In this document: positions 44,814-64,000 of the stretch, in pieces
Numbering within the stretch: position 1 is the stretch's first letter
How the letters are laid out: every line of letters begins with the position of its first letter
Origin: a virus
Strand: one strand, 5' to 3'
IMG/VR virus record: IMGVR_UViG_3300042549_008472
Span: 15,495-79,494 of that record
DNA length: 64,000 nucleotides
Notes under the pieces: model-generated
Seen by the model: only the letters and a program-made list of their open reading frames with translations
The model's database searches: none
What the model was told of the DNA's origin: nothing
Made by a program: the position numbers and the translations under genes

Positions 44814-46406
44814 ATCCCCTTTGGTGCGTAATTATGAACATTAAATCTAATACTAGCTTTTGACAGATTAGTTAATCTTTTACCTTTTAAAGCTTCTTCT
44901 AAAATAGTGTCTTGACGCTCTTGTAGTAGAATATGGTTATGAAACCAAAACTCTTGTTTAGTTTTTTCTTCCGCCATAGCTTTCTCTAAGTCTAGTGGAG
45001 GAGTTGCCTCTGCATACATTTGTGTTAGTATTTCTAGGATTAGTTTGTCTAGTTTTTTCATGTTGTAATAATTCTTTTAAGGATGTTAATTGCAAATTCA
45101 GCTCTTTCATAATCGTCTGATGAGTTTGCATAATCTTTAAGTTTGTCAATTTCGGCGCGAATAAAATTAGAAGAGATATATTCTAAATCATCACTGTAAA
45201 TTTTATTAGCGCACCAAGAAACCATATACAGTTCATCAAAGTCACTACAGGTTTCTCCACAGTCTTCTAATCCTGTCTGCAAAAATATTTTATTTGGTTG
45301 GTTTTTCATTTTATAATGATATTAAATATTTTTCACTTGTGCAAGAAAAGAAACAAAAAACAGCCTTTAAAAACTAAAAAAGTGCATTCTCTTTTTGATA
45401 ACCATCCAGCTTCATAAGGTTCTGTAGTTTTTAAAGTTATGTGAGCAATTGATTCAACCCAAATATCGCCTTCAAAATCTTCTCTGTTATTATAAAATTC
45501 AATAGTGGCTGATTGATGTCTCGCCCTAAAATAAAAGAAATAACCAAGAAAATAACCTTCGGCTTGTACAGGACAATTTCCACCAGGTTTATTAATCCAC
45601 TTAAATAATTTTTTCATAACTTACTTTTACATTAGGACAAGCTCTACTATCTACACTACTATCAACTGTTATGTCACTTCTTTGAGGGTCAGCTAACCAA
45701 AATTGATGTCTTATGTGTTGTACAAGTGAGTAAGCTTCTCTACAAGACTCATCCACTTTAGAATTATATATCCCCCAAGAGCCATTCACTCCCATATCTT
45801 CTCCATATAATAAATTACGAGCCACATTAAGCTGTCTATCTACTTCTTCTCTTATTCCGTGGTATTGTTCCCAATCAGGAGAATGATGAATATTTTCTAA
45901 GTCAGTCCATTTTTTAATTTCCTCTCCATTACCCCATGTACCTTTAGTCCAAATAGCTGTCTTAGTTATTTTAGTTATTTCTCCTCTCATTGTTCTATCG
46001 CCAACTTTTAAAGGAGTTTTTGGAGAAGTGAGTCTCAATACAGAATTTTCAAATGTTGGATGATTTTTAATTTCGGTGAACTGTCCCATACCACAGCGAC
46101 TATAGAAATCTAAAGCTCTTTGAATTAACCTCAGTTGCTGTTCGTTACACTCTATTTTACAATTGTTTTCCATTACTCCTCAATCTTTTCTAAACACATT
46201 ATTTCTAAAACTTCTAGGTGGTCTTCAAGTAAGTCAAATAAATCAACATCTGAGTCTCTTACTGTAATACTTTGGATTTCAAAACTCGACGGAGTTGAAG
46301 GCGTTCCGCTCATGTCACTATAATATCTAACCTCTTCTTCTCCTGGGTCATAGTTACCTTCAATTGTAAGTTCTACTCCTCTAAATTCTAAAATTATTTT
46401 GTCCAT
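44810..46406 (-). CDS. Five small hypothetical genes
   Basis: Co-directional packed ORFs. Confidence 0.55.
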
Positions 46407-48304: not shown

Positions 48305-48337
48305 AATTGTAATACATTTATAGCGATTAGCGATTAG

Positions 48338-48547
48338 TTATGTGATATTTACGCAGTTGACTAAAGCGTACCACATTCCTTTTTCATCATAACAAGTTTC
48401 AGCTTCTTTATTTATTTTAGCTATTTTAAAAATTAAACCGTTGCAATAATTTACTGTATCCCCGACAGAAAAAACATCACATAACAGTGGTTTTGACTTA
48501 TTGCCACATTCGATTAAATTTTCAGTTTGTTTTGTACTTGTATTCAT
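48338..48547 (-). CDS. Cassette gene, hypothetical
   Basis: Start inside hairpin loop, stop TAA inside GTTA core. Confidence 0.7.
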   Translation of the reverse strand: MNTSTKQTENLIECGNKSKPLLCDVFSVGDTVNYCNGLIFKIAKINKEAETCYDEKGMWYALVNCVNIT

Positions 48548-48612
48548 TGTGTTTAATTTAAATATTAGGTCTTATTTTATTGGCAACAAGACAAAGCCAC
48601 AATCCGTTAGCG
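48479..48612 (+). repeat. attC-like site
   Basis: ACATAAC, arm 48487-48506, arm 48581-48600 (17/20 complementary), GTTAGCG. Confidence 0.85.
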
Positions 48613-48867
48613 GTAATTTGCGAGAGCCGTAACTCGTTCCCAAAAAACTTTTTCAACTCTATCCATATCAAAACGGCTACTTTCTTTCATCATTAAAAAC
48701 ATTTGAGTAATAGCATAATCAAGCTCGCCTTTATCTTCTGTTTTTAAGTCAAAGTTTTTTTCTTTATTTTCTCCATAAAAAACCAACCATTTTACTTCGT
48801 CAACGGAAAAACTACCGCTAACAATCGTTTTGTCTAATGGCTTGGCTTGGGTATTATCTGAAATCAT
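48607..48867 (-). CDS. Cassette gene, hypothetical
   Basis: Start inside hairpin loop, stop in GTTA core. Confidence 0.7.
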   Translation of the reverse strand: MISDNTQAKPLDKTIVSGSFSVDEVKWLVFYGENKEKNFDLKTEDKGELDYAITQMFLMMKESSRFDMDRVEKVFWERVTALANYR

Positions 48868-48950
48868 ATTTTTTAAATTTAAAAGTTAGTGTATTTTTGT
48901 AAAGTCTAGTCTTAAATTACGCCACTAGACAAAGCGACCAAACGTTATAA
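48816..48950 (+). repeat. attC-like site
   Basis: CGCTAAC, arm 48826-48841, arm 48921-48936 (14/16), GTTATAA. Confidence 0.85.
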
Positions 48951-49151
48951 GCAAGTGTTACGTTTAGTCCATAAATTAGACAATAACCCAACAAGATTAT
49001 GAACGCAACTTTTTACATAAATCCGCTTCCATTCTACCAACCCAGTTAATTCATCTTCACGCCTCAATAATTCAACTGTTTTTATTCCACTTCTAAAATC
49101 TTGAACAAAACTAATATGTTCCCATTTACTCCATTTTCTTTTTTTAAACAT
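48945..49151 (-). CDS. Cassette gene, hypothetical
   Basis: Stop in GTTA core. Confidence 0.7.
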   Translation of the reverse strand: MFKKRKWSKWEHISFVQDFRSGIKTVELLRREDELTGLVEWKRIYVKSCVHNLVGLLSNLWTKRNTCL

Positions 49152-49192
49152 AATTTTATAATTTAAGTTATTTTTTAATTACCTACACCTGC

Positions 49193-49320
49193 TTATAACA
49201 GCAGTTACACGGCAGTTTGGGCTTTGTTTTTAATTTTCTGTTATTGTTTTTAAGTTCTGTTTCAACTCCGAAAGTATAGGCTTTTTTTACCTCAACCGCT
49301 CGTGTAACTGCAAAACTACG
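49193..49320 (+). repeat. Terminal attC-like site lacking its GTT core
   Basis: TTATAAC, GCAGTTACACG...CGTGTAACTGC (11/11), AAAAC, then TAC instead of GTT. Confidence 0.7.
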
Positions 49321-49341
49321 TAAGCAATAAAATAAAATTGC

Positions 49342-49920
49342 CTACACAATAGGCAATGTCCAATCATTTTTAACGCAATACTCTTTACAAGCATTTCCAA
49401 TCTTTGTAATTATTTCCGCATCTGCTTCTAACATTCCGTGTCCTTTCCATTCATAGGTACTTTGAATTGTATCGGAAATATTACCAATTACTTTAATCAA
49501 ATCTTCTTTTGTCAATTTTTCTAATAAGTTTTCCATCACTAATTTTTTAGATAACTTCTTTTAACATTTCTTTCATGTACAGTAAAACTACCTTTAAGTT
49601 CATCATAGATATGGAAGTACCCGCTGTTAAAGTACCCAAAATACCTACCTCCACCAATTCTGTTTTTTAAAAATATTAAATATTTCATAATGCTTATATT
49701 ATATAATGTTTAAAAATCTCGCCCAAAAATAAGACTGATAAAAAAGAGAACTGTAAAAAATCCAAAACCCTACAAGCTTTAGCCATTTAGGCGTTACAAT
49801 TGTAAAAACTTCTGTAAAAGTTACAAGAGGTACATTAAATAATTTTGTAAAACTTAGTAAATGTAAAACTCCAAATACTAAAGTAAAGGAGAATAAAAAA
49901 TCTGTTGTTGTCATATTCAT
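49342..49920 (-). CDS. Small hypothetical genes (49342-49539; membrane protein 49699-49920)
   Basis: ORFs downstream of the promoter at 49934-49964. Confidence 0.55.
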
Positions 49921-49933
49921 CTGTTTTATACGG

Positions 49934-49964
49934 CAAATATATAACCTATTTTTTAACTGTGCAA
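49934..49964 (-). promoter_or_regulatory. Bacteroidota-type promoter reading toward the cassette array
   Basis: Minus strand TTGCAC...TATATTTG. Confidence 0.65.
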
Positions 49965-50025
49965 GTTATTTGTGTTAAAAAACGTAGAGAGCATAAAAAA
50001 TCCCCCAATTAAGGAGGATTTGGTT

Positions 50026-52158
50026 TTATGCAGAACAGGCTAAACAATCCTCTCCCTCTTTTGGCTTTTCAAAAACAGTTCTTTTATATAAAGATTCAGT
50101 TCCTACTTTTTTCTTTTTTGTGCGAGTGTAATAGACACCCGTTTTTAATCCTTTTTGCCACGCATAAATTAAAGCACTTGAAATCTTAGTAAAATCAGCA
50201 TCCAAGTAATAAGTATTAAAACTGTAAGATTGGTCTATAAAAGGAGCAGATTCTGCTAACATATCAATCCTATGTCTTTGCTTTACTTCATAAGCTGTTT
50301 TATACTTATCTCTTATAGGTTTTGGTATAAATGCAATACTTTGAATACTACCTTCTGCTTGGATAATCATATCTGCCATATCTTTATCCCACAAACCAAT
50401 AGCTTTTAATTCTTTTACTAAAGTATCTTGAACTACTACAAATTCACCTTTATCTAATTTTCTAACATACATCATAGATTGTGGAACTTCAAATCCCTCT
50501 GTGCAAGATAATAAATTAGAACTTGATGCTGTTGGCATTAAAGCTACAAATAAGGTGTTACAAACTGGTTTAGAAGTATCAACATCTAAATCTTTAATGT
50601 CTATTCCATACTTACAGGGGTGTAAATTCCAAGTTGCATAATCTGATTTTTCATAATCTTTAAATTGAATACCGTAATCTTCATAATATCTTTGACTACC
50701 TTTAATTGCTCCTTCATAAATCTGTTTCATTACCTCTTTCATTTCTTTTGGTGCGTCAGGGTGTTCAAAATGTAATCCTCTATCATATAAATACTCTGCT
50801 AAACCAGCAACACCGATTCCAACTGACCTTTGATTTAATCCACCTTTTAAAGCTCTTTCTGTTGGATATTTATTTCTGTCAATTACTCTATTAATATTAT
50901 AACATAGTACCTCTGCCGCTTTTTTTATATCTTTGCAATATGGTAAAGGAATAGAACCTAAAGCGCATTGCCCTGTTTCATCAGGGGTTGCTATGTTGGT
51001 TATTTCTGCACAAAGTTGAGTTGACTTTACAACACCTAAATGTCTTTGCATATTATACTTATTAATAGTATCTATGTAGTTTATGTAAGGTGTTCCTGTT
51101 GAAACTTGTGATGCAATCATTTTTTGCCAAATTTCTAAAGGGTTTATTTTTTCGCCAATACCTAATTCAACTGCTTTATTATAAGCATCTGTCGCTTCTT
51201 GCCCTACTAATTCATATAATCTAATATTATGTTTTTCAAGGTCATAAGGACAAAACAGATAAAAGTCTTTTTGGTTAATTAACGATTCCATAAAGAAATC
51301 ATTGATAACAACTCCTGTGAAAATATCTCTTGTTCTTAATCTCTCATCTCCCTCGTTTAGTCTTAATTCTAAAAACGGAATAATATCTTTATGATAAATT
51401 GGTAAATATATTGAGGCACTTCCAGGTCTTCTGCCCTTTTGATTGTAAAACCTTAAAGTGGCTTGCATCATATCCGCTAAACGAACTACACCACTTGCAA
51501 AACCTTGACCTCCTACTCTTGATTTACTACTTCTTATATTACCAATATAAACACCTATACCAGCACCATTTTTACTTGATTTTGCAATCTCTTTTAAACT
51601 TTCTTGTATTGAATCAAGGTCATCCCCTGCCAACATACTGGAATCACAACTTATAAAAGTTTCAGAACCTGTTCCAGCATTTAAAGTTGTAGGTGTAGCA
51701 AAATTAATTTGTTTTGAAATTAGCATATCAAACATTTCTTGCTTTTCTTCTGTTGTTTCTCCAAAGTAGTCTGCTATTCTTGCATACATTTCTTGCGGAG
51801 TTTCATTTCCTTGTTGATAGGTTTTTTTAAATGTCGAATAGGCTAAATAATCATATTTAATATCTTTGTCTATGTCAAAAGAAAATCTGTTTTTATTTGT
51901 TTTGCGGAAATCTCTTGTTAAGGCAATTCTCGCCGCAAAAAAACTATAATCAGAATCTAATACAATCTTACCCAAAGCCTCGCTAATAATGATTTCATCA
52001 ATCTCATTAGTGGTTATACCATCTTTAATTTGTCCTATAACTGATTGTGTTAACGTATCACAATCTACGTTTAAACCCTCCCCTTGCTTCTTAATTCTGT
52101 TTAAAATTTTGTTTGGTGAAAAGCTTTCCTCTTTTCCGTTAGTTTTTATTATCTTCAT
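50026..52158 (-). CDS. nrdA: Class Ia ribonucleotide reductase alpha subunit
   Basis: ATP-cone, ATPT..NAG, ISC, STQLCAEI, MPTASSS, GLKTGVYY, C-terminal CLACSA. Confidence 0.93.
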   Translation of the reverse strand: MKIIKTNGKEESFSPNKILNRIKKQGEGLNVDCDTLTQSVIGQIKDGITTNEIDEIIISEALGKIVLDSDYSFFAARIALTRDFRKTNKNRFSFDIDKDIKYDYLAYSTFKKTYQQGNETPQEMYARIADYFGETTEEKQEMFDMLISKQINFATPTTLNAGTGSETFISCDSSMLAGDDLDSIQESLKEIAKSSKNGAGIGVYIGNIRSSKSRVGGQGFASGVVRLADMMQATLRFYNQKGRRPGSASIYLPIYHKDIIPFLELRLNEGDERLRTRDIFTGVVINDFFMESLINQKDFYLFCPYDLEKHNIRLYELVGQEATDAYNKAVELGIGEKINPLEIWQKMIASQVSTGTPYINYIDTINKYNMQRHLGVVKSTQLCAEITNIATPDETGQCALGSIPLPYCKDIKKAAEVLCYNINRVIDRNKYPTERALKGGLNQRSVGIGVAGLAEYLYDRGLHFEHPDAPKEMKEVMKQIYEGAIKGSQRYYEDYGIQFKDYEKSDYATWNLHPCKYGIDIKDLDVDTSKPVCNTLFVALMPTASSSNLLSCTEGFEVPQSMMYVRKLDKGEFVVVQDTLVKELKAIGLWDKDMADMIIQAEGSIQSIAFIPKPIRDKYKTAYEVKQRHRIDMLAESAPFIDQSYSFNTYYLDADFTKISSALIYAWQKGLKTGVYYTRTKKKKVGTESLYKRTVFEKPKEGEDCLACSA

Positions 52159-52917
52159 TTAATTATTTCTTAGTTTAAAAAGTTTTTCCACGCTTACCTT
52201 ATTACCACCGATTTTACCATTTGCCGATAAAGAAGATTTTGCTTCCTTTTGCCAAACACATTCAAAATCAGTAGGTGCTTCATATTCACTTACAAAAATT
52301 GTGTGTCCTTGCTTTGCCTTTTCTCTGCACCAAATCCAAAAATTTGAATGATTAAAGTCTTTTGATGTGGAGTATTGTTTAGTTCCTTGATATGGAATGT
52401 CGCAATAAATAATACTGTTTGCGGGTATTTCCAATTCAGTATAATCTTTGTTCTCAAATTGAACACCCCACATCTTTGGTAATTGCTTTTCAATATTACT
52501 TATTGCTTCCTTAATGTAATCTCTTACCGTTCCAATTTTTGTATTTGATTTACCCGAATATCCGCCATCAAAAAATCTACCGTTTGCAGAACCCATCCAA
52601 CCAATCCAACCCACCATATCATCAGTTATATTCGTTTTATGTTCAAATCTTGTTTCTCTGCCGTTGTAAACATCTCTTGCAAGGTCATACAATTCTTTTG
52701 GTATGTCCGTTGGATATTTAATTCCATTTGCTAACCCTTTCCACATTTCAATTAAGTGGTAGTTTTTATCATTGGCAAGCCTATTACCACCTACCTCGCA
52801 AATAGCGTTCATTCCACCTGCAAATGGCTCAATATACCATTGGTCGGTTGTTCTATCTTTTAATATTATCGGCAAAATTTCTTTGGTAAATCGTGCCTTG
52901 CTTCCCATGTATTTCAT
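52159..52917 (-). CDS. Dam-like (D12 class) DNA adenine methyltransferase
   Basis: KYMGSK, EPFAGG, IYCDIPY (DPPY variant), VSEY. Confidence 0.85.
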   Translation of the reverse strand: MKYMGSKARFTKEILPIILKDRTTDQWYIEPFAGGMNAICEVGGNRLANDKNYHLIEMWKGLANGIKYPTDIPKELYDLARDVYNGRETRFEHKTNITDDMVGWIGWMGSANGRFFDGGYSGKSNTKIGTVRDYIKEAISNIEKQLPKMWGVQFENKDYTELEIPANSIIYCDIPYQGTKQYSTSKDFNHSNFWIWCREKAKQGHTIFVSEYEAPTDFECVWQKEAKSSLSANGKIGGNKVSVEKLFKLRNN

Positions 52918-52920
52918 ATA

Positions 52921-54864
52921 TTAAAAATCATCATTAAATAAATCCCCACCCATATTTTCCAATTTTTGATATGCACCGCTCTTACTTTCAAAAAAGTTTT
53001 GTCTTACTACTAAACTAATGTTCGACATAAAATCCAAAGGTTGTGAAACGTTAAATTCTAATGGTAGTTGATAATAATAAAGTAAATTATCAGCAACATA
53101 TTGAACATATTGTAACATCTTCTCTTTTGGTAAACCAATAACATCTCCTTGCTCATAGATAGACTCTACAAATAGTTTTTCAGTGTTATAACAGTCTAAA
53201 ATCATCTCTCTAACTTCTTCTTGTGGTAACTTATAATCATCTTTAATATATTTGTTATAAAGAAGTATTGCAAAGTTCATGTGCATTAATTCATCAATTA
53301 AAATCAATTCATTTGCTTGTCCAAGTCCCGCTAATTGTGGATATTTTTGGCGGAAAAACATTAAAAAAGCAAAAGTAGAACTAAAAGCCATTCCCTCAAC
53401 CAATGAGAACGCAACTACTCTTTGAATTAAACTGCCATTCTCTAACCATTTTTTAGCCCACTTAACTTTTTCAGCTACAATGGGATTGGTCTTAATAGCA
53501 TTAAACATTTCAAACTTTTCTTGGTCATCTTTTATAAGTTGTTCAATTAATCTACTATATGTTTCGCTTTGCCCTGTCAGAATACCATTAAATACCCCTG
53601 CATTTCTAAGAGGCTCGCTAAAACAATAAGTCATCTCGGTCTGTATTTTTTCTATATTTACAACTTTAATTAACTTTTTTCTTTCTACAACTAATTCATC
53701 AGTTTTAATCTGTAACCTTTTAGGATTAAACCCTAACTTAGCGAGCTTTTTAACGTTTGCTGTTGTTATATACAAGCAGTATAACTCTTTTGTTTCATAT
53801 AGTCTGTTAGCTCCTTTACCATCAGGTAATAAACTAAACCCTTCTTTTTTAGCCACTTTTAAATTTGCAGATATTCCTAAAGTAGTTAGTAAAAGTTTTA
53901 CATTTTTTATGAAATCTAAGTTTATTGAAGTATACTGAATAGCAGTAGCTGTCCTTTTTTTATTATAATTTATACAGCCGTCACCATCAAAAAGCCCCTC
54001 TAACCACTCTATTTTTGTTTTTACTGAATAGTTTATTGGTGTAAAAAACTTAGGTTTATTTAATTTATTGGTTAGGTAGAACTTATAAATATCTTTACGT
54101 TCTGCACTTAAATCTCCAAAATAAGGCAAAAGATTCTTCTTTTCTCCATATAATTTAATATATGGTGCATTATTTGTGTAACTACCATCTGCACAAAAGA
54201 ATCCATGTATATAAGGATTTAGTAAAAAATCTTCGTCTTGTAAATCTACAATTGGTAAATTGAAATCATATATAACATCCCCTAAACTTAATGTGTTTGT
54301 TGGTTTTTTTATTAACTTACAATTTTCTGGGTGGTTTTGATTACCATGTCTTATGAACCACTTATGCCCATCTGTACAATCTATATAACTACCATCGGAT
54401 AAGGTAACTCTATATAAATCTTGAACACCTGTTTCAACAATTCTTACCTTTGAAAATTCTTCCCCGTTCCATACATTAACCGATTCTCCGACTAATTTCC
54501 CAATTTTTAATTGCCCTTTATCTGTAAGGATTTTTGTATCAAAACTGACACAATGGACATCTTCTATATATGCTTGATAAACATAGTTAGATTTAATCTC
54601 TTCAATAGAGGAAAATTCTGAAATAATTTCATCGGCTAAATTATCTTGAACTATACTATCAGAAACACCAAAGAAACCTAATAGATGTTTTAAAATAGAA
54701 ACTGTTTTATCAGGTATCCCTTCAAAAGTATCTTTACTTAAATCTAATTCTTCTGCTGTCCAAATAGCTTGTTGTTGTTTTTTAAAATAATCCCACAACT
54801 CTGTGTGGTAGATAGGAAATTTAGTGTTACGTTCACCATTTGTAATATTTAAGTATTTACTCAT
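52921..54864 (-). CDS. nrdB: Class Ia ribonucleotide reductase beta subunit, intein-containing
   Basis: W..EE.DLS.D, IEDVH/SETY, VEG..FS..F, DE.MH, NFFE; start probably MSKYL. Confidence 0.9.
   Translation of the reverse strand: MSKYLNITNGERNTKFPIYHTELWDYFKKQQQAIWTAEELDLSKDTFEGIPDKTVSILKHLLGFFGVSDSIVQDNLADEIISEFSSIEEIKSNYVYQAYIEDVHCVSFDTKILTDKGQLKIGKLVGESVNVWNGEEFSKVRIVETGVQDLYRVTLSDGSYIDCTDGHKWFIRHGNQNHPENCKLIKKPTNTLSLGDVIYDFNLPIVDLQDEDFLLNPYIHGFFCADGSYTNNAPYIKLYGEKKNLLPYFGDLSAERKDIYKFYLTNKLNKPKFFTPINYSVKTKIEWLEGLFDGDGCINYNKKRTATAIQYTSINLDFIKNVKLLLTTLGISANLKVAKKEGFSLLPDGKGANRLYETKELYCLYITTANVKKLAKLGFNPKRLQIKTDELVVERKKLIKVVNIEKIQTEMTYCFSEPLRNAGVFNGILTGQSETYSRLIEQLIKDDQEKFEMFNAIKTNPIVAEKVKWAKKWLENGSLIQRVVAFSLVEGMAFSSTFAFLMFFRQKYPQLAGLGQANELILIDELMHMNFAILLYNKYIKDDYKLPQEEVREMILDCYNTEKLFVESIYEQGDVIGLPKEKMLQYVQYVADNLLYYYQLPLEFNVSQPLDFMSNISLVVRQNFFESKSGAYQKLENMGGDLFNDDF
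53569..54552 (-). mobile_element. Intein (328 aa) with LAGLIDADG endonuclease, ending in Gln
   Basis: H|CVSFDTKILT...CTDGHKW...GFFCADG...GLFDGDG...TYCF...NGILTGQ|S. Confidence 0.9.
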
Positions 54865-54892
54865 TTTTATTATTGATTTAATTATTTTAGAC

Positions 54893-55038
54893 AAAAAAAC
54901 TCCTGCCATTAATTTGCGACAGGAGCATTATTTTTATGTTTCGTGTACCAAGTTCTTAAAAAAGATTCTTTTACACCGCTATCTCGGACAGCCTTTTTAA
55001 TTTGATACAAATATAATTCTTTTATATGATTTGTGCAA
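54893..55038 (-). promoter_or_regulatory. Promoter, ~100-nt structured leader and intrinsic terminator upstream of nrdB
   Basis: TTGCAC...TATATTTG (55038-55008); GCTCCTGTC/GGCAGGAGT stem plus T tract. Confidence 0.55.
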
Positions 55039-55062
55039 GTTAATTAATTTTTAATTTGTTTT

Positions 55063-56719
55063 TTAAAAATAATCTTTCATGTTGTCAATTTTTCCTTCAA
55101 CTCTCTCTAAAATCTGTTTTAATTCCTCTATTGATTTTGCTTCATTAGTTGTTACCATTAAGTATTTAGAGAAAATCTGAGATAATTTAGGATAAAAGTG
55201 AGACTGTCTTTTTACTGTTGGTTCTATTTCTCCTGTCTTTTTATTTTCTTTTTCGCCGATTTCCTCGTGTACTAAAACTAAGCCTCTGTAGCCATCAGGC
55301 TCTAAGTGATAACCGTCTGTTAATTCAATTCTGTCTGTATTCATGTTTTTAAATATTGTGTGCATTTTAGCTATTGTTTAATTAATATCATAATCCATAC
55401 ATAACTGTTCAAAATCTTCGATACAAGCATAGAGCATATCATAGTCATTATAGTGTCTTGGATATTCTCCTATTTCTAAATATTTGATAGTTAAGGCATA
55501 ATCCTCTGAATTTAAATTGCCTCTGTCTGCCAATCTTTCATACTCTTCTTTGAGAGCCTCTGCTAATTTTTGTTTTCTCATCTTACTGTTTTTAATATTA
55601 TTCCCGCGAATATATGGTCTTCACTGTAGTCTTCAAATTCTGTAAAATCGCTCATATATGTTGTTTTTGAGTTTGAATTTCTCACATAGTATTTCTTTTA
55701 AGTCCTCTATTGTGAGAGTTATTTTAGTTTCAGTTGTTGTTTCTGTTTTCATACCTCTCTAGCCAATGTGTAAAGTTATTTAATAAATAATCTGTTGCTA
55801 TTTTACAGTCTTTAATCTGTATAAATTTACCTTTCTTAATTTCTATTTCTTCGTCGGGTAAATACTCTTTCATAAAAGTTCCTTTGTAATTTTCATCTAA
55901 AATAAAATTCGTTCTCCTATGTTAGGTAATCTGTCTTTTATTTTTATGGCTCTGTATAAAATGTCTTTCATAAGCTGTTCTTATTTATAAATTATTTCAT
56001 AGGCTCTCTCCAAACAATAGTGCTCCTCTCCCTCATTTAAGAATTCTCCGTTTTGGTATAGTCTGTGTAAGCCGTAGTCAACATATATTATTTCCAAACC
56101 GTGTAGTTTTAATACGGACTTTTCCATTAAATATGTATCAAATATTTGTTTTAAATCTTCCTCGGCTTTCATATCTGAGTTTCTGTACTTGTCTCTAATG
56201 CTTCCTAAATGATTCATAAGTTGTTGTTTTTATTTCTTCTACAAAGATATATCATTGTTTTTAGTTGTGCAAGAATTTTGTTGATTAATATTCCACATCT
56301 ATAATAAAACCTTCAAAAATATATCTAAAATCTTCTGCTACTTGCTCTAAAAACTGTTCCATAATATCTTCATTGTATTTTCCAGAGGCAGAAACATTGT
56401 ATCTATAACTATCTGTTTTATGGTATTTTAATTTAGCGTCTGTAAACTTTTCTCTCATATTTTTAACTTTTTCCGCGAAAAATTTATAAACTTCTTTATC
56501 TAACATAGGTTCGATAATTTCTCTTACTAAAGAGATGTGTTTAAAAGTTCTCGCTAAAGAACGTTGTCTAAAAAATTCAGCTGAGTCGTTATCATCATCG
56601 AATACAAAAATCTCTCTTAGTTTTATAGCTTCTGTAATACCATTGTGTACTTGGTCTAATATTGTGTAATCTAAGTCTGCATTGACTTCCATTATGAAGT
56701 CTGTGATTTTATTATTCAT
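55063..56719 (-). CDS. Small hypothetical genes (55063-55365, 55378-55581, 55981-56217, 56285-56719)
   Basis: Co-directional ORFs; promoter at 56242-56272. Confidence 0.55.
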
Positions 56720-56888
56720 TTGTTTTTAGTTTTTTCGCCGATAAAAAATAAAGAAACAGAGTAGATGCCTTGGTCTTATTGAGGCACACTTTAATAGCTT
56801 CCGTACTACTCTGAATCTTTAAAATAACAGACTTCAATTAAGTAACCACACTGGGTATCTGTTTTGAACGAGTGACTTAACGACTCTG

Positions 56889-56966
56889 TTTCCCCAGTGT
56901 GACTCGAACACACATGTAACCAAATTACGGTTTCTATTCGTTATGAGCGAAAGCCGATATGGGGAA
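56889..56966 (-). ncRNA. tRNA-like RNA with CAU anticodon loop and no D arm
   Basis: TTCCCCA/TGGGGAA acceptor, GTGTG-TTCGAGT-CACAC T arm, TTCG-CTCATAA-CGAA anticodon arm. Confidence 0.7.
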
Positions 56967-57265
56967 GAATAAAAACAGAAATCCTTGAAGATAGGAACAG
57001 CGATACTTTCATGCACAAGTAATTAGCTTGCAACAATCTATCACCTACATATCGGTGCATTGGGATATACTGTCATACTCAACAAACACAACACTTCTTC
57101 TAATGTTGTAACAATCTTTTCCCATGTAGAGGTTATCCAGTGTTGTAGTGTGCCCCTTATTTATATCCCTTGTCGCAAAGCTTACGGTTATATTCAACTA
57201 CGGGTTTGCGTTTTACTTACACAGGTAAAAATTATTACTTGTTTGTCTTTCTATTTCTGTTTTTG

Positions 57266-57335
57266 TGGCGAGACTAGGTGTCGAACCTAACTCTTCTGCT
57301 ATCCACACAGACGCTTACCCCTAAGCTATCACGCC
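57266..57335 (-). tRNA. Atypical or degenerate tRNA (nominal anticodon GGA, short variable loop)
   Basis: GGCGTGA/TCTCGCC acceptor, GCTT/AAGC D stem, TAGG-TTCGACA-CCTA T arm; non-canonical anticodon loop GTGGATA. Confidence 0.55.
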
Positions 57336-57578
57336 AATTTGTGAATCAAAAAATTTCCGCCGTAGCTAAAAAATATCATCACACGTTAAGACTTATCCAA
57401 ATTGTGTAGGTATCTAAACAGGGTAAACTCTATTCTACATCTGAATGTATTCAAAGTCATAACTTTTTTTAGGTTCAAAACGCGAACTGAAACTCATTTA
57501 ATACTTAACAGAAAAACTGTTTCTAGGTTTGTCCCTAGCACGCATAGACACTATACGTAGTTAAACATCGGTGTTTTG

Positions 57579-57671
57579 TGGGTGAATACAGGAGTCGAAC
57601 CTGCGAACCTTTTGGATGATGAGGTTTCTATGTTTACCTTTCATTGCTTTAACCACTTGCATAATTCCCCC
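57579..57671 (-). tRNA. Degenerate type II tRNA (Tyr/GTA-like)
   Basis: GGGGAAT/ATTCACC, D loop AAGTGGTTAAA, long variable arm AACCT/AGGTT, GCAGG-TTCGACT-CCTGT; anticodon stem poorly paired. Confidence 0.5.
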
Positions 57672-58001
57672 ATTTTACAGCGTGGGCTGTCACTTATCAG
57701 TTTTGGTAGCATCCCTTAGTACCTAATCTTCATCAGGGCAAGGGTCGAATCTTAATTAATCTTCATAATGTGTTACCGTCCATCTTTCTGTCTCATGGTC
57801 GTAAGAACGGCTTCCTTGTACTTCTTCGTTGTAATCTCGTGAATTTTTATCACTGTAAAAATCTTTTGATACTTCTTTCATTTTTTATTTATTTAATTAT
57901 TAATTTTTTGCGCGAAAAAGATAAAAACAGAGGAGAAGACATTATATATTATGCTACCACGTATTACTTAGGTTCACCTACCTCTGTTTCATTCTTCGTT
58001 A

Positions 58002-58032
58002 CAAATGTACAAATAGTTTTTTACTTGTGCAA
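58002..58032 (-). promoter_or_regulatory. Promoter of the tRNA/ncRNA cluster
   Basis: Minus strand TTGCAC...TACATTTG. Confidence 0.65.
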
Positions 58033-58061
58033 ATATTTTTAATCTTTTTTGCCGAAATACT

Positions 58062-58856
58062 TTAAATTTGTCCTAAAGATTCAGCCATTAAAAGTTTTAC
58101 ATTTATCTCTACATTATGTAAAGACTCTAATAAAAGGCACTCCGTAGCACCTCCAAACCAAATTGAGGGTTTGTATAAAAAATCTCTTCCCTCTTTGAGT
58201 AAATACTGTTCTATTTTAAAACAATTATACATACTATTTTCTTGCAAAAATAAAATTTCTTTATTGTATGGTATTTTTGCAAATCTTTTTTCGCAGGACT
58301 CTTCTTTTGTGATACCTATTTTAATGAATTCTTCACTTGTGTTATATAGTTTTACAATGTATACAAATCCTTTTTCTTTTATCAATAACTCTTTATATTT
58401 TTCAAAATATGAAATGGTTTGTTTATTTTTACCATCACCATAACAGTATGCACAACCTACGTTCCCTTTACTTAAAAGTTTATTAGGTGTGTTTTCATAC
58501 TCTATGTTACAACTATTACACTTATATTTTACTCTTGTACCATTATTTACATAATCACCTGTTATAGAAAGTTTATCTTTAAATTTAGTTGTTATACTAT
58601 TTATAAAATTATCCTTATATCCTTTATACTTTTCAGATTCAACTTTTTCTCTAATACATTTTTTACAACCATGTCCTTTAGAGTGCAGATAACAACTTTG
58701 TTTAAAAATACCATGATTAGGACAAATTATTTCAACAAGACACTCAGAATTTATATATTCTGTAAATAAACTATAATCATAGAAATCTTTATGTACCTCA
58801 TTAAAATAATCTTTAATTTTTTGAATAGTTGTATTTTTAAAACTGAATTTTGACAT
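58062..58856 (-). CDS. Zn-finger-repeat GIY-YIG/T5orf172-like putative homing endonuclease
   Basis: ICPNHG.F...GC..C Zn repeats; GFVYIVK...FIKIGIT...FGGATEC. Confidence 0.65.
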   Translation of the reverse strand: MSKFSFKNTTIQKIKDYFNEVHKDFYDYSLFTEYINSECLVEIICPNHGIFKQSCYLHSKGHGCKKCIREKVESEKYKGYKDNFINSITTKFKDKLSITGDYVNNGTRVKYKCNSCNIEYENTPNKLLSKGNVGCAYCYGDGKNKQTISYFEKYKELLIKEKGFVYIVKLYNTSEEFIKIGITKEESCEKRFAKIPYNKEILFLQENSMYNCFKIEQYLLKEGRDFLYKPSIWFGGATECLLLESLHNVEINVKLLMAESLGQI

Positions 58857-59570
58857 CTATTTAAAATATTTTTGATAAATTTTAAAATACTCTGAAATTT
58901 CTTTGCAAACAGATACAACAGAATTTTTTAAATAGTATTCTACATCTTCTTTTTTATATGGTGTATAGATATAATCAATCTGACCCGTTAACCTTAAACA
59001 GTTTTTATCACCTATTATTAAATTATTTCCTTTGCGGTCTAAATGATTTACTCTGCAACCACCGATATCAAAACCTTCTAATTCTCTTTGATAAGCATAC
59101 ATACGAGTTTGATAATACTTTTTTATATCTCCATACTTCTCTTGCATACTTTTAGATGCACCTGTCTTTAAATCTTCTATAAATAACATACTATCAATCT
59201 CGTATTCATGGTCTGAAAACCCCTGTAAAACACAATCTTTAAGTCCAAAAGGTTCAAGGTCAATTACTATTTCAGACTCGTATTTAGAACTTTCATGTTT
59301 AACTAACTGATTAATAGTGTTCATGTCAAATTCAGACAGATTTTTATCCCTCTCGCCATCAGAGAAATAAGTCCCTACAAGATTACCAAAAAATGCAAAC
59401 ATACCACTTTCAGAGGAGTTTCCTAAAAAATATCCTTGTATGTACTGCTCTTTATAATCTTTAAAAGAATTAAGTTGACTATAACTAATTTTCTGTTTAT
59501 TTTTATGTTGTGGGTAATTACCTAATTCATTTTCATACAACTTAGGTAAATTTATTTTAATTGCTTTCAA
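58857..59570 (-). CDS. PD-(D/E)XK (RecB/Cas4-like) exonuclease
   Basis: ISYSQL, GFSD, IEDLKTG, Q..MYA. Confidence 0.75.
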   Translation of the reverse strand: MKAIKINLPKLYENELGNYPQHKNKQKISYSQLNSFKDYKEQYIQGYFLGNSSESGMFAFFGNLVGTYFSDGERDKNLSEFDMNTINQLVKHESSKYESEIVIDLEPFGLKDCVLQGFSDHEYEIDSMLFIEDLKTGASKSMQEKYGDIKKYYQTRMYAYQRELEGFDIGGCRVNHLDRKGNNLIIGDKNCLRLTGQIDYIYTPYKKEDVEYYLKNSVVSVCKEISEYFKIYQKYFK

Positions 59571-60519
59571 ATTCTTCTTTTAATTGGTTTATAATTTCAT
59601 CTATCTGTTTTTGATTGGTTACCTTTCCAAAATTAGAATCAATTTCGGCTAAAGATGCTTTAACTAAATCTAATACAATGTCTTTTTCTTTTTTAGATAA
59701 TTTATTCTTTTTTAAAATTTCCTCTAACTTCTGTTTATCTTTTATTGTAATTACCTTATTTGTATAAATCTTTTGTAACAGAGGTAACTCTTCTGTTTTA
59801 ATATCTTGCCTAAAAATAGGCTCTAAAATATTATCTCCTTTCCAAACTCTTATTAGGTTACTTAATACTGCAACATCTGATTCACAGTAAGATTGTAGCT
59901 CTTTAATTCTACCTGAATAAAAATAGTCAGAAGTTTCATTACCATGCATAATGAGTTTACTTGATGGAATCTTAAAGCACATTGCCAATTCATCTAAAGA
60001 AGTGTTTCCAAAATTTATCCCCTTCCATAATTTCATACTGTCATGTACAGATTTTTCCATATCCCACACTTTCATCCCTACATCATTACCTTGTGTCTCA
60101 GATAAATAATCTTCTGTCTTTAATCCATTTATGAACCACCTTTTTCTTATGTAGGGCATGTCAAACTCAGCGTTATGAAAGACTAAACTCCTGCCCGTGG
60201 ATTTAACTAAAGATATTAAATTAGTCAGTATTTCTTTCTCTTCCCCAACAAAAGACTTAATATGAAGTTCATCATTATGTATAAATCCAACAGATATACA
60301 AGCTATTTTACCCCACTCAGGGAATAATGCCGATTTATCATAATAAAGGCGAATATTTTCTTCATCTGAAAGAAATTCATTAGTCTCTTTATTTCTCTGT
60401 TTCCACTGCCAAACACTATAATATGGGTGGCTTTGGTCAAAAGTCTCTTCTCCTCTGATGGTTTCACAATCTGCAAAAAGAAGTTTTGAGTAATCTAAAT
60501 TTTTAATTTTACTGTTCAT
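59557..60519 (-). CDS. PolB-type 3'-5' exonuclease (DnaQ-like)
   Basis: DCET, GKIACISVG, HNAEFDMPYI, YCESDV. Confidence 0.8.
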   Translation of the reverse strand: MNSKIKNLDYSKLLFADCETIRGEETFDQSHPYYSVWQWKQRNKETNEFLSDEENIRLYYDKSALFPEWGKIACISVGFIHNDELHIKSFVGEEKEILTNLISLVKSTGRSLVFHNAEFDMPYIRKRWFINGLKTEDYLSETQGNDVGMKVWDMEKSVHDSMKLWKGINFGNTSLDELAMCFKIPSSKLIMHGNETSDYFYSGRIKELQSYCESDVAVLSNLIRVWKGDNILEPIFRQDIKTEELPLLQKIYTNKVITIKDKQKLEEILKKNKLSKKEKDIVLDLVKASLAEIDSNFGKVTNQKQIDEIINQLKEEFESN

Positions 60520-60522
60520 CTG

Positions 60523-61314
60523 TTATTTATTTAAAATCATTTCTAAAATGTCTTCTCTGTGTTTTTGACCATTTTTTGTTTGAGCATATTTTGCCTTTGC
60601 CTCCAAAATCGTCCACAGTGGTACAACTTTTAATTCAAAATCATCGTATTTTAACAGTTCATATTTTTGTTTTGGGTCAATTTTTATGTCGGCTTTTAAA
60701 CTATTGATTAAGATACAATCATCATAATCACTTCCGCTAAACCTCTCTTCTCCTCCATCTTCGTCAACCTTAATGCCTTCTTTGGTTAAAAGTTTTGAGT
60801 AAAATGGTAAAATAAAATCGTAATCTCCAACACCTGAAGAAAAACGGTTAAGTCTAACACCCTGTAAATAAAGTGCTATACTTCCTCCAACTATAAGATG
60901 AGGATTCAATTCTTGTAATGCTCTTACAGTTTCTATTTTCATAGCTTTATCAAGCAGTTTTTTCTTTTTATCTGCTTCGATTTTATTTAACTCTTCCTTA
61001 GTTATTTCTCTTAAGAATTTAATACACTTTGCCCCGCTCTTTTTGTCAGAACCATCTTCAAAATTACCTATTATTTCAATCTCAAAAAATCTATTACCGC
61101 CGTTATTTGTATAATAATCAAAAGTATCTTCCAAGTTATTGCAATAATGAAGAGCTGTTTTTGTGCAAAGTTTTAGTTCAGGACTAATTATTATTGAACC
61201 GTCTTTTACTTCTTTAACTTCATTTTTGTCATCAATATAGTAAGTTTTACCCACTTCAAAAGCTACATCTCTGCACTTTAAATTTTTGTCTGTTCCTTTA
61301 TATCCTAATTTCAT
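60523..61314 (-). CDS. Two-domain protein with C-terminal nucleotidyltransferase-like domain
   Basis: N-terminal YKGTDKNLKCRD..FEVGKTY phage domain; VGGSIAL...GDYDF. Confidence 0.5.
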   Translation of the reverse strand: MKLGYKGTDKNLKCRDVAFEVGKTYYIDDKNEVKEVKDGSIIISPELKLCTKTALHYCNNLEDTFDYYTNNGGNRFFEIEIIGNFEDGSDKKSGAKCIKFLREITKEELNKIEADKKKKLLDKAMKIETVRALQELNPHLIVGGSIALYLQGVRLNRFSSGVGDYDFILPFYSKLLTKEGIKVDEDGGEERFSGSDYDDCILINSLKADIKIDPKQKYELLKYDDFELKVVPLWTILEAKAKYAQTKNGQKHREDILEMILNK

Positions 61315-61334
61315 CCTTCTGTTATTTAATTATG

Positions 61335-61365
61335 CAAATATATTCTTTTTATTTTACTCTTGCAA
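61335..61365 (-). promoter_or_regulatory. Bacteroidota-type promoter
   Basis: Minus strand TTGCAA...TATATTTG. Confidence 0.6.
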
Positions 61366-61478
61366 ATTTATTTTTAAATATTTAACCCCTTGTTCAGTTT
61401 CTTTTATTTCTCCTGAAAACTGCCAATCTATGTATTCAGAACCATTTTTACTTCTACAAAATGTATTATATTTCATCT

Positions 61479-62282
61479 TTATATTGGCAAATTTATTTTA
61501 CTTAAAATTTGGTTTGACACGTGAGTATAGACCTCGGTTATTTTTGAGGAGCTGTGGCCTAAACATTTTTGTATGATTCGCAGGTCTGTTCCTGCTTCCA
61601 ATAATGCCGTTGCTTGTGAATGCCTTAGTAAATGAAAATGATAATCTTTACCAATATATTTCTTAACTATTTCATTACAACTTCTGTGCGAATATTTCAA
61701 TCCAAACTGACCACTAAACAAGAACTCTTTTGGTCTACATTCTTTAAAGTATTCGCGCAAAAGATTTAAAACAGTAGAAGATAGAGGAACAAAACGGCTT
61801 TTCCTACCTTTACTATTAACAATATGAATCAACATTCTTTTACTATCAACATTCTCAATTTTTAAATTACAAACTTCACTAACTCGCATTCCTGTAGAGT
61901 AAGCTAAAGTGATAATAGCTTTGTGTTTCAAATTTTCAATTTTTGAAATCTTATCAAGTAAAAAATCTTTATCAATTACTCTTGGTAATTTTTTCTCTGA
62001 TTTTGGTCTTTTAAAAGACACTTTATCATACTTCTTCTCTAATCCGTATTTATATAAAAATCTAATAGAATTTATCACTTGATTTTGTTGAGAAACTGAA
62101 CTAAATTTATAATTATCTAAATAGTTTTGAAAATCTTTAGCATTTAAATGTGATATTTGTTTATCTCCAATACTTTTTACAAAATCCTTTATGTGATAAA
62201 TATAGTTTTCTTTTGTTCGTGGAGAGTAATTAAGATATATAAACTTTTGTTCGCAAATCTTTATAATTTTTTCGTTTAACAT
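61479..62282 (-). CDS. Tyrosine recombinase (Xer/IntI-like), probable cassette integrase
   Basis: N-terminal YSPRT..NY; catalytic GMRVSE, KGRK, HLLRH, LGH, VYTHV. Confidence 0.9.
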   Translation of the reverse strand: MLNEKIIKICEQKFIYLNYSPRTKENYIYHIKDFVKSIGDKQISHLNAKDFQNYLDNYKFSSVSQQNQVINSIRFLYKYGLEKKYDKVSFKRPKSEKKLPRVIDKDFLLDKISKIENLKHKAIITLAYSTGMRVSEVCNLKIENVDSKRMLIHIVNSKGRKSRFVPLSSTVLNLLREYFKECRPKEFLFSGQFGLKYSHRSCNEIVKKYIGKDYHFHLLRHSQATALLEAGTDLRIIQKCLGHSSSKITEVYTHVSNQILSKINLPI

Positions 62283-62332
62283 GTTGATTTTATTAGTGTT
62301 TCAATACAGTTGAGTATATATTTATGTTATAA
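62283..62332 (+). other. attI-like site
   Basis: Hairpin-free segment between the integrase ATG and the first core GTT at 62326. Confidence 0.6.
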
Positions 62333-62692
62333 CACATTTTTTTCCAATGTTACCGCTGAATCAGAAATAACTAAAATTTCTTTATAAGTTTCTTTGTCTA
62401 CTATTAAAGCCATAGGTTTAGTAAATTTCATATGTTGAAAAACCAAATCTGTTATTCCTTCAATCCTGCTTAAATTGCTTTTTGCTATTTCTAAATCTCT
62501 TTCCCATTCTGCAATTAATTTCTTTTGTTTTTGCACTTTTTCAAACGCAAATAATAATACTTCCTTTGCTACATTTTCATCGCCTTGAATTTCATTTACA
62601 ACCCCTGAAAAAGAAGTTAAATCGTCTAAATTAAAACGTGTTATAACATCGGTTTTGTTAAATGCCTTGTTTTGGTCTTTTTCTGTATTCAT
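62327..62692 (-). CDS. Cassette gene, hypothetical coiled-coil protein
   Basis: Start in hairpin loop, stop in GTTA core. Confidence 0.7.
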   Translation of the reverse strand: MNTEKDQNKAFNKTDVITRFNLDDLTSFSGVVNEIQGDENVAKEVLLFAFEKVQKQKKLIAEWERDLEIAKSNLSRIEGITDLVFQHMKFTKPMALIVDKETYKEILVISDSAVTLEKNVL

Positions 62693-62774
62693 TTTGTTTA
62701 ATTTTAAAGTTATTGTTTACTTGTTGCGTTTAGTCTTAAAATACGGCACTAAACAAAGCCGTCAAACGTTACCT
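62641..62774 (+). repeat. attC-like site
   Basis: TTATAAC, arm 62650-62666, arm 62745-62761 (14/17), GTTACCT. Confidence 0.85.
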
Positions 62775-62798
62775 GCAAGTGCTACATTCGTTCTTCGA

Positions 62799-63728
62799 TT
62801 AAACATTTTCGTTAGAAAAATTATTAAAAATTTCCTCCCCTTTTAAAAAAGAAAAAATATAAGCAATTACATCTACTGTCCAGCCATTTCCTAATACTTC
62901 ATATCGTTTAGAAGATGATACCATTTTTGTATAATCTTTTGGAACACTTTGTAGTTTCTCTACTTCGTTTTCTGTTAATCTTCTTATTTCTCCATTAGGC
63001 AAATATGTTTTGGTTAAATGCCTTGCAGCTCCGTGATGTGATGCAGATAAACAAGCCATTAATCCATCATATCTGTAAATATTATCCTGTTGGTGTTTAC
63101 CTGCCTTGTGTCTTATTATTTCATTCTCGCTCCATTTGTAATTTAAGTCAAGTTTTGACTTTTGCTTTTCGGTTAAATAATATTCACTACTTGCTTCTTC
63201 TAAAATATCATTCAAGCAATGATTAAATGTATTTGGAATATTTTCAATTTTTATATTAGTCCAAAATAATCTTGGTCTATTTTGCGGCACAAAAAACTTT
63301 GAGTTTATTTCAATAGGTTCTACTCCTATTGCTTCTGAAATTATATCTTGCCATTCTTTTTTCATTTTTACATTTTCTAATAAAAAATAAGTTGGTTTAG
63401 TTTCATTTAATATTCTTACATATTCCCAAAATAAACCACTTTTTCCATCAAAACCCTCTCCTCTACCAGCATTTGAAAAAGATTGACAAGGACTTCCCCC
63501 TATCAATAAATCTACTTGTGGTAAATCCGTGCCTTTTATTTTCGTAACACTTCCAAGTTGTTTAGTATTTGGGTAGTTTGCCATTGTTATTTTTATAGCA
63601 TCTTTGTCAATTTCAGAAGCAAAGTAATTCTCTACTTCAAGCCCTGCTCTTTCTAACGCTATTTGACCACAACTAATGCCATCAAACAATGATAATACGT
63701 TTATTTTTTCTTTTTTGCCTACACTCAT
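62799..63728 (-). CDS. C5-cytosine DNA methyltransferase (cassette-borne)
   Basis: LSLFDG, GGSPCQ, LLENV, QNRPRLFW, LGNGW. Confidence 0.92.
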   Translation of the reverse strand: MSVGKKEKINVLSLFDGISCGQIALERAGLEVENYFASEIDKDAIKITMANYPNTKQLGSVTKIKGTDLPQVDLLIGGSPCQSFSNAGRGEGFDGKSGLFWEYVRILNETKPTYFLLENVKMKKEWQDIISEAIGVEPIEINSKFFVPQNRPRLFWTNIKIENIPNTFNHCLNDILEEASSEYYLTEKQKSKLDLNYKWSENEIIRHKAGKHQQDNIYRYDGLMACLSASHHGAARHLTKTYLPNGEIRRLTENEVEKLQSVPKDYTKMVSSSKRYEVLGNGWTVDVIAYIFSFLKGEEIFNNFSNENV

Positions 63729-63788
63729 TTTTAATAATTTTTTTGTTTAGTATTTCGTTTAAGTTTCTCGTTAATTAACCGCACCAGC

Positions 63789-63881
63789 AGGTAACAAGGT
63801 ATTTGCAAAATTGCCCATCAACATTTGTGCTTAATTTCAAGTATCTGCAAGGGCAACTTCGCAAATACCCGACCGTTAGTG
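63789..63881 (+). repeat. attC-like site
   Basis: AGGTAAC, arm 63798-63816, arm 63851-63869 (17/19), GTTAGTG. Confidence 0.85.
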
Positions 63882-63887
63882 GCAATG

Positions 63888-64000
63888 CTACCCGAACACA
63901 CGAGCAACTGCCAAATCATAATATTTTACCTCTTTTTCAATTCCAATAAAAGAACGGTTCAACTCTTTTGCTCCTAAACAAGTTGTTCCTACTCCCATTG
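63888..64000 (-). CDS. C-terminus of a beta-class N6A/N4C DNA methyltransferase (partial, cassette-borne)
   Basis: Manual translation: ...MGVGTTCLGAKELNRSFIGIEKEVKYYDLAVARVFG-stop (SAM-binding motif). Confidence 0.8.
   Translation of the reverse strand, partial: MGVGTTCLGAKELNRSFIGIEKEVKYYDLAVARVFG

Follow-up and report, generated by a model that had tools for sequence, protein, structure and literature searches.

Introduction

The recombination sites of classical integrons, termed attC, are characterized by an unpaired central spacer, extrahelical bases and a preference for the bottom strand (PMC8946536), and the integron integrases (IntI) carry a specific additional domain near patch III (Messier and Roy 2001; see also the intI_Cterm profile of Cury 2016, PMC4889954). 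One complete integron is on record in Bacteroidetes from IntegronFinder 2.0. Clusters of attC sites without an integrase (CALINs) occur in virulent phages, for example in Polaribacter phage P12002L (Qi et al. 2023, PMC9892861), where the sites were found with the classical attC model and tested with IntI1.

Here we describe a system in a virus that resembles these arrays in organization but differs from them in its enzyme and in the marks carried by its sites. The stretch of DNA that was analyzed, called the window throughout, comprises the final 64 kb of the IMG/VR virus record IMGVR_UViG_3300042549_008472 (79.5 kb, ~56% complete), and its end coincides with the end of the contig. The window encodes a Xer-like tyrosine recombinase of 267 amino acids (aa) together with two arrays of cassettes that are closed by hairpin sites. 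We consider it likely that these sites are the attC equivalents of an integron-like cassette system in phages, wherein a code of wobble pairs and a bulge is read by the Xer-like enzyme. The marks would be read by this enzyme on folded single-stranded DNA.

Results

Hairpin sites and cassettes in the window

A hairpin scan that took in the whole record found four complete sites (S1, S2, S4 and S5; Table 1), all with the layout TAAC-A, 0-1 nt, unbulged arms of equal length that form a stem of 19-20 bp around a loop, ~5 nt, then C-GTTA. A family-specific scan of the record passed the same four and, besides these, only two weak GTA-ended chance hits. Counted from AAC and GTT, the left spacer measures 1-2 nt, the right spacer 5-6 nt and the arms 17-24 bp, in agreement with a preliminary description of this DNA, which had given the sites as AAC, 1-2 nt, arm, arm, 5-6 nt and GTT, with equal-length arms free of bulges in the four complete examples. 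The A/C mismatch that it listed for four sites is found 15 nt after the AAC in every one of them, with a second at 12 nt in S5, and the T.G mismatch that it placed near the base of three sites, on the top strand, lies 6 nt after the AAC in S1, S2 and S4. These three sites also share the reported span of 134-135 bp and the loop motif GTCTTA, which stands just 5' of the right arm (positions 48569, 48909 and 62733).

The bases that follow each GTT are the reverse complement of those that precede the next AAC (48337/48476, 48606/48815, 48944/49192, 62326/62638 and 62768/63787). In the array that lacks a recombinase gene, complementarity links GTTATGTGAT at 48337 with ATCACATAAC at 48476-48485, the R'' box of S2, CCGCTAAC, with GTTAGCGG at 48606, and that of a terminal site, S3, GCTTATAAC, with GTTATAAGC at 48944. 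Near the recombinase gene, the R'' box of S4, GTGTTATAAC, and GTTATAACAC at 62326 are reverse complements, and the R'' box of S5, GCAGGTAAC, is complementary to GTTACCTGC at 62768. This complementarity is the signature of integron arrays, in which R' belongs to the following cassette. Each cassette unit begins at the crossover between the G and the TTA of GTTA and consists of a backward-facing gene, its own hairpin site and the next G; in the window, all cassette genes are on the minus strand. S3 itself is atypical, with an 11-bp stem and an extension carrying one bulged base, a right spacer of 8 nt and GTA in place of GTT, and the family-specific scan does not pick it up.

Some cassette genes run into the sites themselves. 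The open reading frames (ORFs) 48338-48547, 48607-48867, 48945-49151 and 62327-62692 terminate with the TAA that is read opposite the TTA of the GTTA junction, and those whose own site is S1, S2 or S4 start within the loop of that site, while ORF 48945-49151 starts ~40 nt before S3. The recombination site is therefore partly coding. A junction stop codon is common to 13 of 74 cassettes across relatives.

Fixed mispairs and a one-sided bulge across relatives

Relatives of the recombinase at 47-91% identity are encoded on 51 viral contigs, and from these we assembled 149 distinct sites, anchored on the AAC, to which the counts below refer; positions are numbered from the AAC. A neutral hairpin scan of the 51 contigs returned ~180 sites, of which nearly all lie on the strand opposite to the recombinase gene and upstream of it. 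In a strict scan that covered 733 kb of related loci, 151 sites passed on that strand, and the other strand yielded none. This one-strand bias confirms that the sites are more than chance. They have the palindromic organization of attC, R''-L''...L'-R' with AAC and GTT, and their arms covary.

Several positions are nearly invariant. All 149 sites have A at +1 and C before the GTT, and T occupies +7 in 147. At +15 an A is present in 147 sites, forming an A/C mispair in 137 and a Watson-Crick pair in only five; a second scan that was blind to this position found A/C there in 145 of 151 sites. Additional A/C mispairs occur at +10 (45 sites) and +12 (31 sites), whereas mispairs elsewhere in the stem are rare and are nearly all transitions of the same polarity. 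A third fixed mispair, C/A, is found at position 10 of the 14-bp duplex that joins the ends of a cassette, in 51 of 66 linked cassettes. Given these fixed top-strand mispairs (A/C at +15, A/C at the core and C/A at R-box position 10), all of the corresponding G-T wobbles fall on the gene-coding bottom strand. In our reading, the wobbles of the R and L arms are related by the dyad of the site, with G on the outward-reading strand in both arms. The proposal that the sites share geometry and mismatches but not sequence is borne out in its first half but too strong in its second, since TAACA, T7, A15, CGTTA and the A at +10 of R' are 97-100% conserved.

The mismatch near the base behaves differently. 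T.G at +6 is present in 29 of the 149 sites and T-A in none: every T at this position is opposed by G, and AAC does not occur as the facing triplet in any site, so that a second AAC/GTT core never forms. The GGTTTT/AAAGCC type of mismatch is thus explained by avoidance of a second crossover core, and what appeared in the window as a recurrent feature is restricted in the family to sites in which the arm would otherwise rebuild that core.

Because the pairing register is held from +2 to +21 in the 149 sites, the L box has neither a stem bulge nor the extrahelical bases that give attC its strand selectivity; the asymmetry here stems from the wobbles and from a bulge between the boxes. At that bulge the right strand is longer by 3 nt in 75 sites and by 4 nt in 64, with the consensus CAACC. 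The asymmetric spacer of the preliminary description is therefore real but is in fact a one-sided bulge, and its statement that extrahelical bases are lacking holds inside the stem, the unpaired bases having been moved rather than lost.

The sites fall into long-loop (~124 nt) and short-loop (~86 nt) classes. A start codon lies inside the loop in 24 of 45 long-loop sites and is lacking from short-loop sites. Of 74 cassettes, 73 carry their gene on the bottom strand, and many ORFs end in or beside R'; the genes are therefore not read from R'' to R' from a promoter at the attI end. GTCTTA, although present in S1, S2 and S4, was rejected as a family motif and is lineage-specific (4 of 80 long loops). 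Another hexamer, TTTGTG, recurs in 32 of the 80 long loops. ARAGORN found no tRNA genes in the loops of two sites of one related locus (L012).

Arrays with the same code (TAACA, A/C at +15, CGTTA and the R-box chain) are also carried by contigs of Bacteroidota genomes and metagenome-assembled genomes, including Bacteroidia, Flavobacteriales, Algoriphagus and others (L079:8991-12554, L081:4666-6001, L076:9774-10605, L071:3901-5086 and L095:9496-10064). The recombinases beside these arrays are 35-44% identical to the phage enzyme, and the sites lie downstream of the gene on the same strand, which is the opposite of the phage layout.

Covariation of arms and of cassette ends

The preliminary description had proposed covariation of homologous sites as a check, and the arms do covary. 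In an alignment of 50 short-loop sites, 15 of the 16 paired stem positions have undergone double changes and pairing is kept in 92% of cells, a result matched by none of 500 shuffles, while slid registers give 26-53%. Of 140 neighboring pairs, 69 show a perfect R-box chain, compared with 3 of 140 random-pair controls. Moreover, R'' and R' pair over 14 bp, with covariation, in the 66 distinct linked cassettes, even though the two boxes of one cassette are 150-1700 bp apart. Folding with DNA parameters favors the bottom strand in 129 of the 149 sites (p = 3e-20), and the bottom strand of S5 folds at -17.3 kcal/mol (z = -3.6).

A Xer-like recombinase beside an attI-like site

The catalytic residues R-K-H-R-H-Y of the recombinase (R133, K158, H217, R220, H243 and Y252) are invariant in an alignment of 21 relatives. 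Its best NCBIfam matches are archaeal XerA first, followed by XerC/D and IntI, all below the curated cut-offs (XerA 171 versus 220, XerC 156 versus 335, XerD 152 versus 330), and the integron integrase family TIGR02249 reaches 150.5 bits against a cut-off of 265 with a match in two pieces. Alignment to IntI4 (2a3v) is likewise split, with query residues 179-209 standing opposite chain residues 181-259, so that ~48 residues are missing at the place of the IntI-specific domain. The AlphaFold2 model (mean predicted local distance difference test score, pLDDT, 85) has XerA (5hxy and 4a8e) as its nearest structures and is collinear with XerA, and the best 120 relatives are all 240-300 aa long. The recombinase is thus Xer-like and lacks the IntI-specific insertion, as had been supposed in the preliminary description. 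It also stands apart from XerC, XerD and XerA acting on a 28-bp dif-type site, both by its scores and by its sites, which are hairpins of 85-135 bp.

The attI-like site next to this gene forms no hairpin, and cassette B1 begins at its GTTA, at position 62327. About 20 relatives keep cATATATAaTA-GTTA at the same distance from the recombinase. Crossover between the G and the TT, chaining of R' with R'' and an attI-type site beside the integrase gene, as in integrons, are thus all found here.

DNA near-identical to the window is present in lake-water metagenomes, and some contigs of other lake metagenomes (X2, X3 and X4) have their breakpoints right at the GTTA junctions. One contig (from X2) is identical across the recombinase gene as far as 62329 and continues with 687 other letters; in another (from X3), cassette B1 stands behind a different attC-type end, joined at 62326; and a third (from X4) joins 48336 to 63875, GTTA to GTTA. 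Between loci, homology blocks end at GTTA, and those that contain the cassette body start at GTT. For example, a 399-bp cassette is 96% identical in two loci (L042 and L049) whose left sites are unrelated, and the homology begins at GTTA. Cassettes therefore differ between genomes exactly at GTTA. A search for single-cassette insertions or deletions in near-identical arrays among the 51 loci found none, the arrays being either too diverse or exact duplicates.

Other differences among the metagenome contigs lie away from the hairpin sites. A contig from X4 skips exactly 759 bp (52153-52911), the length of the Dam-type methyltransferase gene (52159-52917) that sits between two ribonucleotide reductase genes; given this exact skip, the gene looks like a separate insertion with no hairpin sites. 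Other contigs, from X4 and from a further lake metagenome (X5), join a homologue of the 3' part of the Dam-type gene to 62785, just past S4.

Table 1. Positions of the recombinase gene, recombination sites and cassettes in the window
Feature	Position	Strand	Details
Left boundary GTTA of second, recombinase-less (CALIN-like) array	48337-48340	+	13 kb from recombinase
Cassette A1	48338-48606		Closed by S1
S1, long-loop site	48472-48620	+	AAC 48483-48485, GTT 48606-48608; T.G at +6 (48491); A/C at +15 (A 48500 / C 48587)
Cassette A2	48607-48944		Closed by S2; 86-aa ORF, start in loop, end in TAA of GTTA junction
S2, long-loop site	48809-48958	+	AAC 48820-48822, GTT 48944-48946; T.G at +6; A/C at +15
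S3, atypical or decayed terminal site	49190-49332 (approx.)	+	R'' complementary to bases at 48944
Recombinase, Xer-like tyrosine recombinase, presumed enzyme of the system	61479-62282	-	267 aa; Pfam Phage_integrase and SAM_4
attI-like docking site	62283-62340	+	TATATA-rich arm, then GTTA 62326-62329; no hairpin; 44 nt upstream of recombinase ATG
Cassette B1	62327-62768		Closed by S4; 121-aa ORF on minus strand
S4, long-loop site	62634-62782	+	R'' ends in AAC 62645-62647; GTT 62768-62770; T.G at +6; A/C at +15
Cassette B2	62769-63875		Closed by S5; C5 DNA methyltransferase 62799-63728, minus strand
S5, short-loop site	63782-63889	+	AAC 63793-63795, GTT 63875-63877; A/C at +12 and +15
Cassette B3	from 63876		Cut by contig end

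Genome context

The window has a G+C content of ~30% and codes for virion proteins, DNA polymerase, helicase, ligase and ribonucleotide reductase; beyond 35 kb every gene is encoded on the minus strand. The host phylum of the carrier phages is probably Bacteroidota. The closest recombinases of cultured phages are only ~37% identical to the 267-aa enzyme, and megablast and blastn searches of GenBank phages with the region and with one common site type gave no matches. An Rfam search of the window gave no family match.

A motif, TTGTGCAAG, occurs at 2906 and 24868 on the minus strand and at 45337, 49957, 55031, 56265 and 58025 on the plus strand, and these copies are intergenic, each antisense to its flanking genes. 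When one mismatch is allowed there are 30 matches compared with 16.5 expected, a number reached by none of 100 shuffles. Read along the sense strand as CTTGCACAA, the motif could represent a promoter or regulatory element of the phage.

The region 56720-57750 is richer in G+C and has no ORF. It contains one predicted tRNA-Ser(GGA) gene (57265-57335, minus strand) and further T-arm-like pieces that ARAGORN did not call, and 56824-57341 is skipped by contigs from X4 and X5. A LAGLIDADG intein region (53549-54553) in the gene for the reductase small subunit (52921-54909) is absent from one X4 contig, in which 1003 bp are skipped with 19 other letters between; this contig looks like an intein-free allele.

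Discussion

A proposed model for site recognition

The findings can be accommodated by a model in which the gene-coding (bottom) strand of the site folds. One recombinase monomer would bind the R duplex and cleave TAAC between TAA and C, and a second would bind the 19-bp L stem, with the one-sided bulge of 3-4 nt giving bend and polarity. The G-T wobbles, of which each arm has one ~10 bp out, the two being related by the dyad, would together with the one beside the core mark the right strand; on the top strand the same marks appear as A-C mismatches. With no intact second AAC/GTT in the L arm, exchange would be confined to a single strand, as in integrons. The wobbles and the bulge would then replace the extrahelical bases that are docked by the IntI insertion, which is absent from the Xer-like enzyme. 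Overall, the interpretation that the preliminary description gave to the hairpin family and its recognition code is partly supported.

Several observations weigh against this model. Both the action of the recombinase on the sites and the folding of DNA rather than RNA are proposed from sequence, and the wobbles sit on the mRNA-sense strand, a pattern also expected of RNA structure. As free single-stranded DNA, S1, S2 and S4 are no more stable than shuffles (z = -1.1, -0.3 and +0.4), and the greater stability of the bottom strand does not extend to S1 and S2. Free-energy scores thus fail to support folding of the long-loop sites of the window, and the case rests on covariation instead. Furthermore, the R box of a site within an array pairs over TAAC/GTTA only, with complementarity inside the site at random level. 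This pairing is so short because R' belongs to the next cassette, and excision would consequently have to use a very short R duplex. Finally, the metagenome support consists of assembled contigs, and one of the joints has just 26 letters on its shorter side.

Alternative explanations

One alternative is that the sites act as double-stranded DNA, with inverted Xer-type cores (R''+L'' and L'+R') around a spacer, much like pdif and with no folding, in which case the A-versus-G difference between the arms would only tell left from right. Such an arrangement would suit an enzyme that is Xer-like and collinear with XerA, and long loops make folding costly. The attI-like partner, too, is simple double-stranded DNA, and its left arm, TCAyAyA at 8-14 nt from the GTT, resembles the L' arm by eye. 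We nevertheless regard this explanation as unlikely, since the arms covary freely and hold no consensus for protein binding, the mispairs are almost exclusively transitions of one polarity, and the 14-bp covariation of R' with R'' across the body of a cassette would be left unexplained.

Slightly less probable still, in our estimation, is that the stems are selected mainly as RNA, forming G-U hairpins or gene-flanking duplexes on polycistronic mRNA that function in processing, stability or termination, with DNA exchange being secondary. The placement of nearly every cassette gene on the wobble strand and the start codons in many long loops speak for this possibility. However, the wobbles are fixed at single positions (92-100%), which goes beyond mere tolerance, and neither the C-A mispair nor the ban on T-A at +6 has an RNA rationale. 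U-tracts are absent as well, and the TAAC/GTTA cores are DNA breakpoints that are accompanied by an attI-like site beside the recombinase gene.

Homologous recombination offers a further route. Repeats that combine a promoter with a stem-loop have been proposed to shuffle genes in this manner in T4-type phages, and some of the site types seen here do recur often, at ~90% identity, beside unrelated cassettes. It is very improbable, though, that the hairpins are merely passive repeats and the neighboring recombinase unrelated to them, as similarity between most sites is too low for homologous exchange and the R-box chain calls for a crossover that always falls at the same phosphate. The sites also keep a strict orientation with respect to the recombinase gene (151 versus 0) and co-occur with the recombinase clade in 51 contigs. 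Hairpin elements of the IS200/IS605 or REP type were dropped from consideration, because the genes scanned between 47.7 kb and the end of the contig include no HUH transposase and because the R-box chain fits crossover by a tyrosine recombinase.

Implications

A broader form of the proposed integron-like reading is that a plain Xer-type recombinase lacking the IntI insertion carries out integron-style exchange of single strands by means of wobbles and a bulge, as a second, independent (or ancestral) solution to attC recognition that is widespread in phages of Bacteroidota and present in some Bacteroidota chromosomes. On this broader proposal we are evenly divided. In the limited collection of integron papers that was searched in full text, this pairing of recombinase and site is not described.

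If true, the proposal would add another way of recognizing folded DNA and of choosing a strand. Integron recombination is held to need extrahelical bases docked by a domain found only in IntI, whereas here the same cassette logic would operate without either. The rules, namely three wobbles, one bulge and the absence of a second AAC, are simple and can be tested. The proposal would also suggest a large reservoir of exchangeable phage genes, including many for DNA methyltransferases, in which standard integron finders call at best orphan attC clusters, and would bear on the origin of integrons from Xer-like ancestors.

Comparison with known systems

The phage system shares with classical integrons (class 1 and the Vibrio chromosomal integron; PDB 2a3v) a tyrosine recombinase beside a simple attI-type site, arrays of small cassettes, and an imperfect palindrome R''-L''...L'-R' with AAC and GTT, in which crossover between G and TT leaves R' in the next cassette and one strand folds better than the other. 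Unlike in those integrons, the enzyme lacks the IntI-specific domain, extrahelical bases are absent from the L box, their place being taken by G-T wobbles at fixed positions and by a bulge of 3-4 nt on one side, and the R duplex is 14 bp rather than 7. Moreover, the genes face backwards (73 of 74) and often start in the loop, the better-folding strand is the coding strand, and the carriers are phages.

The CALINs of Qi et al. (PMC9892861) likewise combine attC-type sites with methyltransferase cassettes in phages, and the array at 48337-49332 resembles them in having no adjoining recombinase gene. The part of that paper on which we draw describes no Xer-like recombinase of the phages' own and no code of wobbles or bulges.

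Xer recombinases (XerA, XerC/D and XerH) are the closest match to the phage enzyme in both sequence and fold. A precedent for the use of a folded site by such enzymes is attP(+) of the CTX phage, a folded single strand that is recombined by XerCD. In contrast to Xer/dif systems, the phage sites are not of the 28-bp dif type, and they serve an array of multiple cassettes rather than the resolution of chromosome dimers or the integration of a phage.

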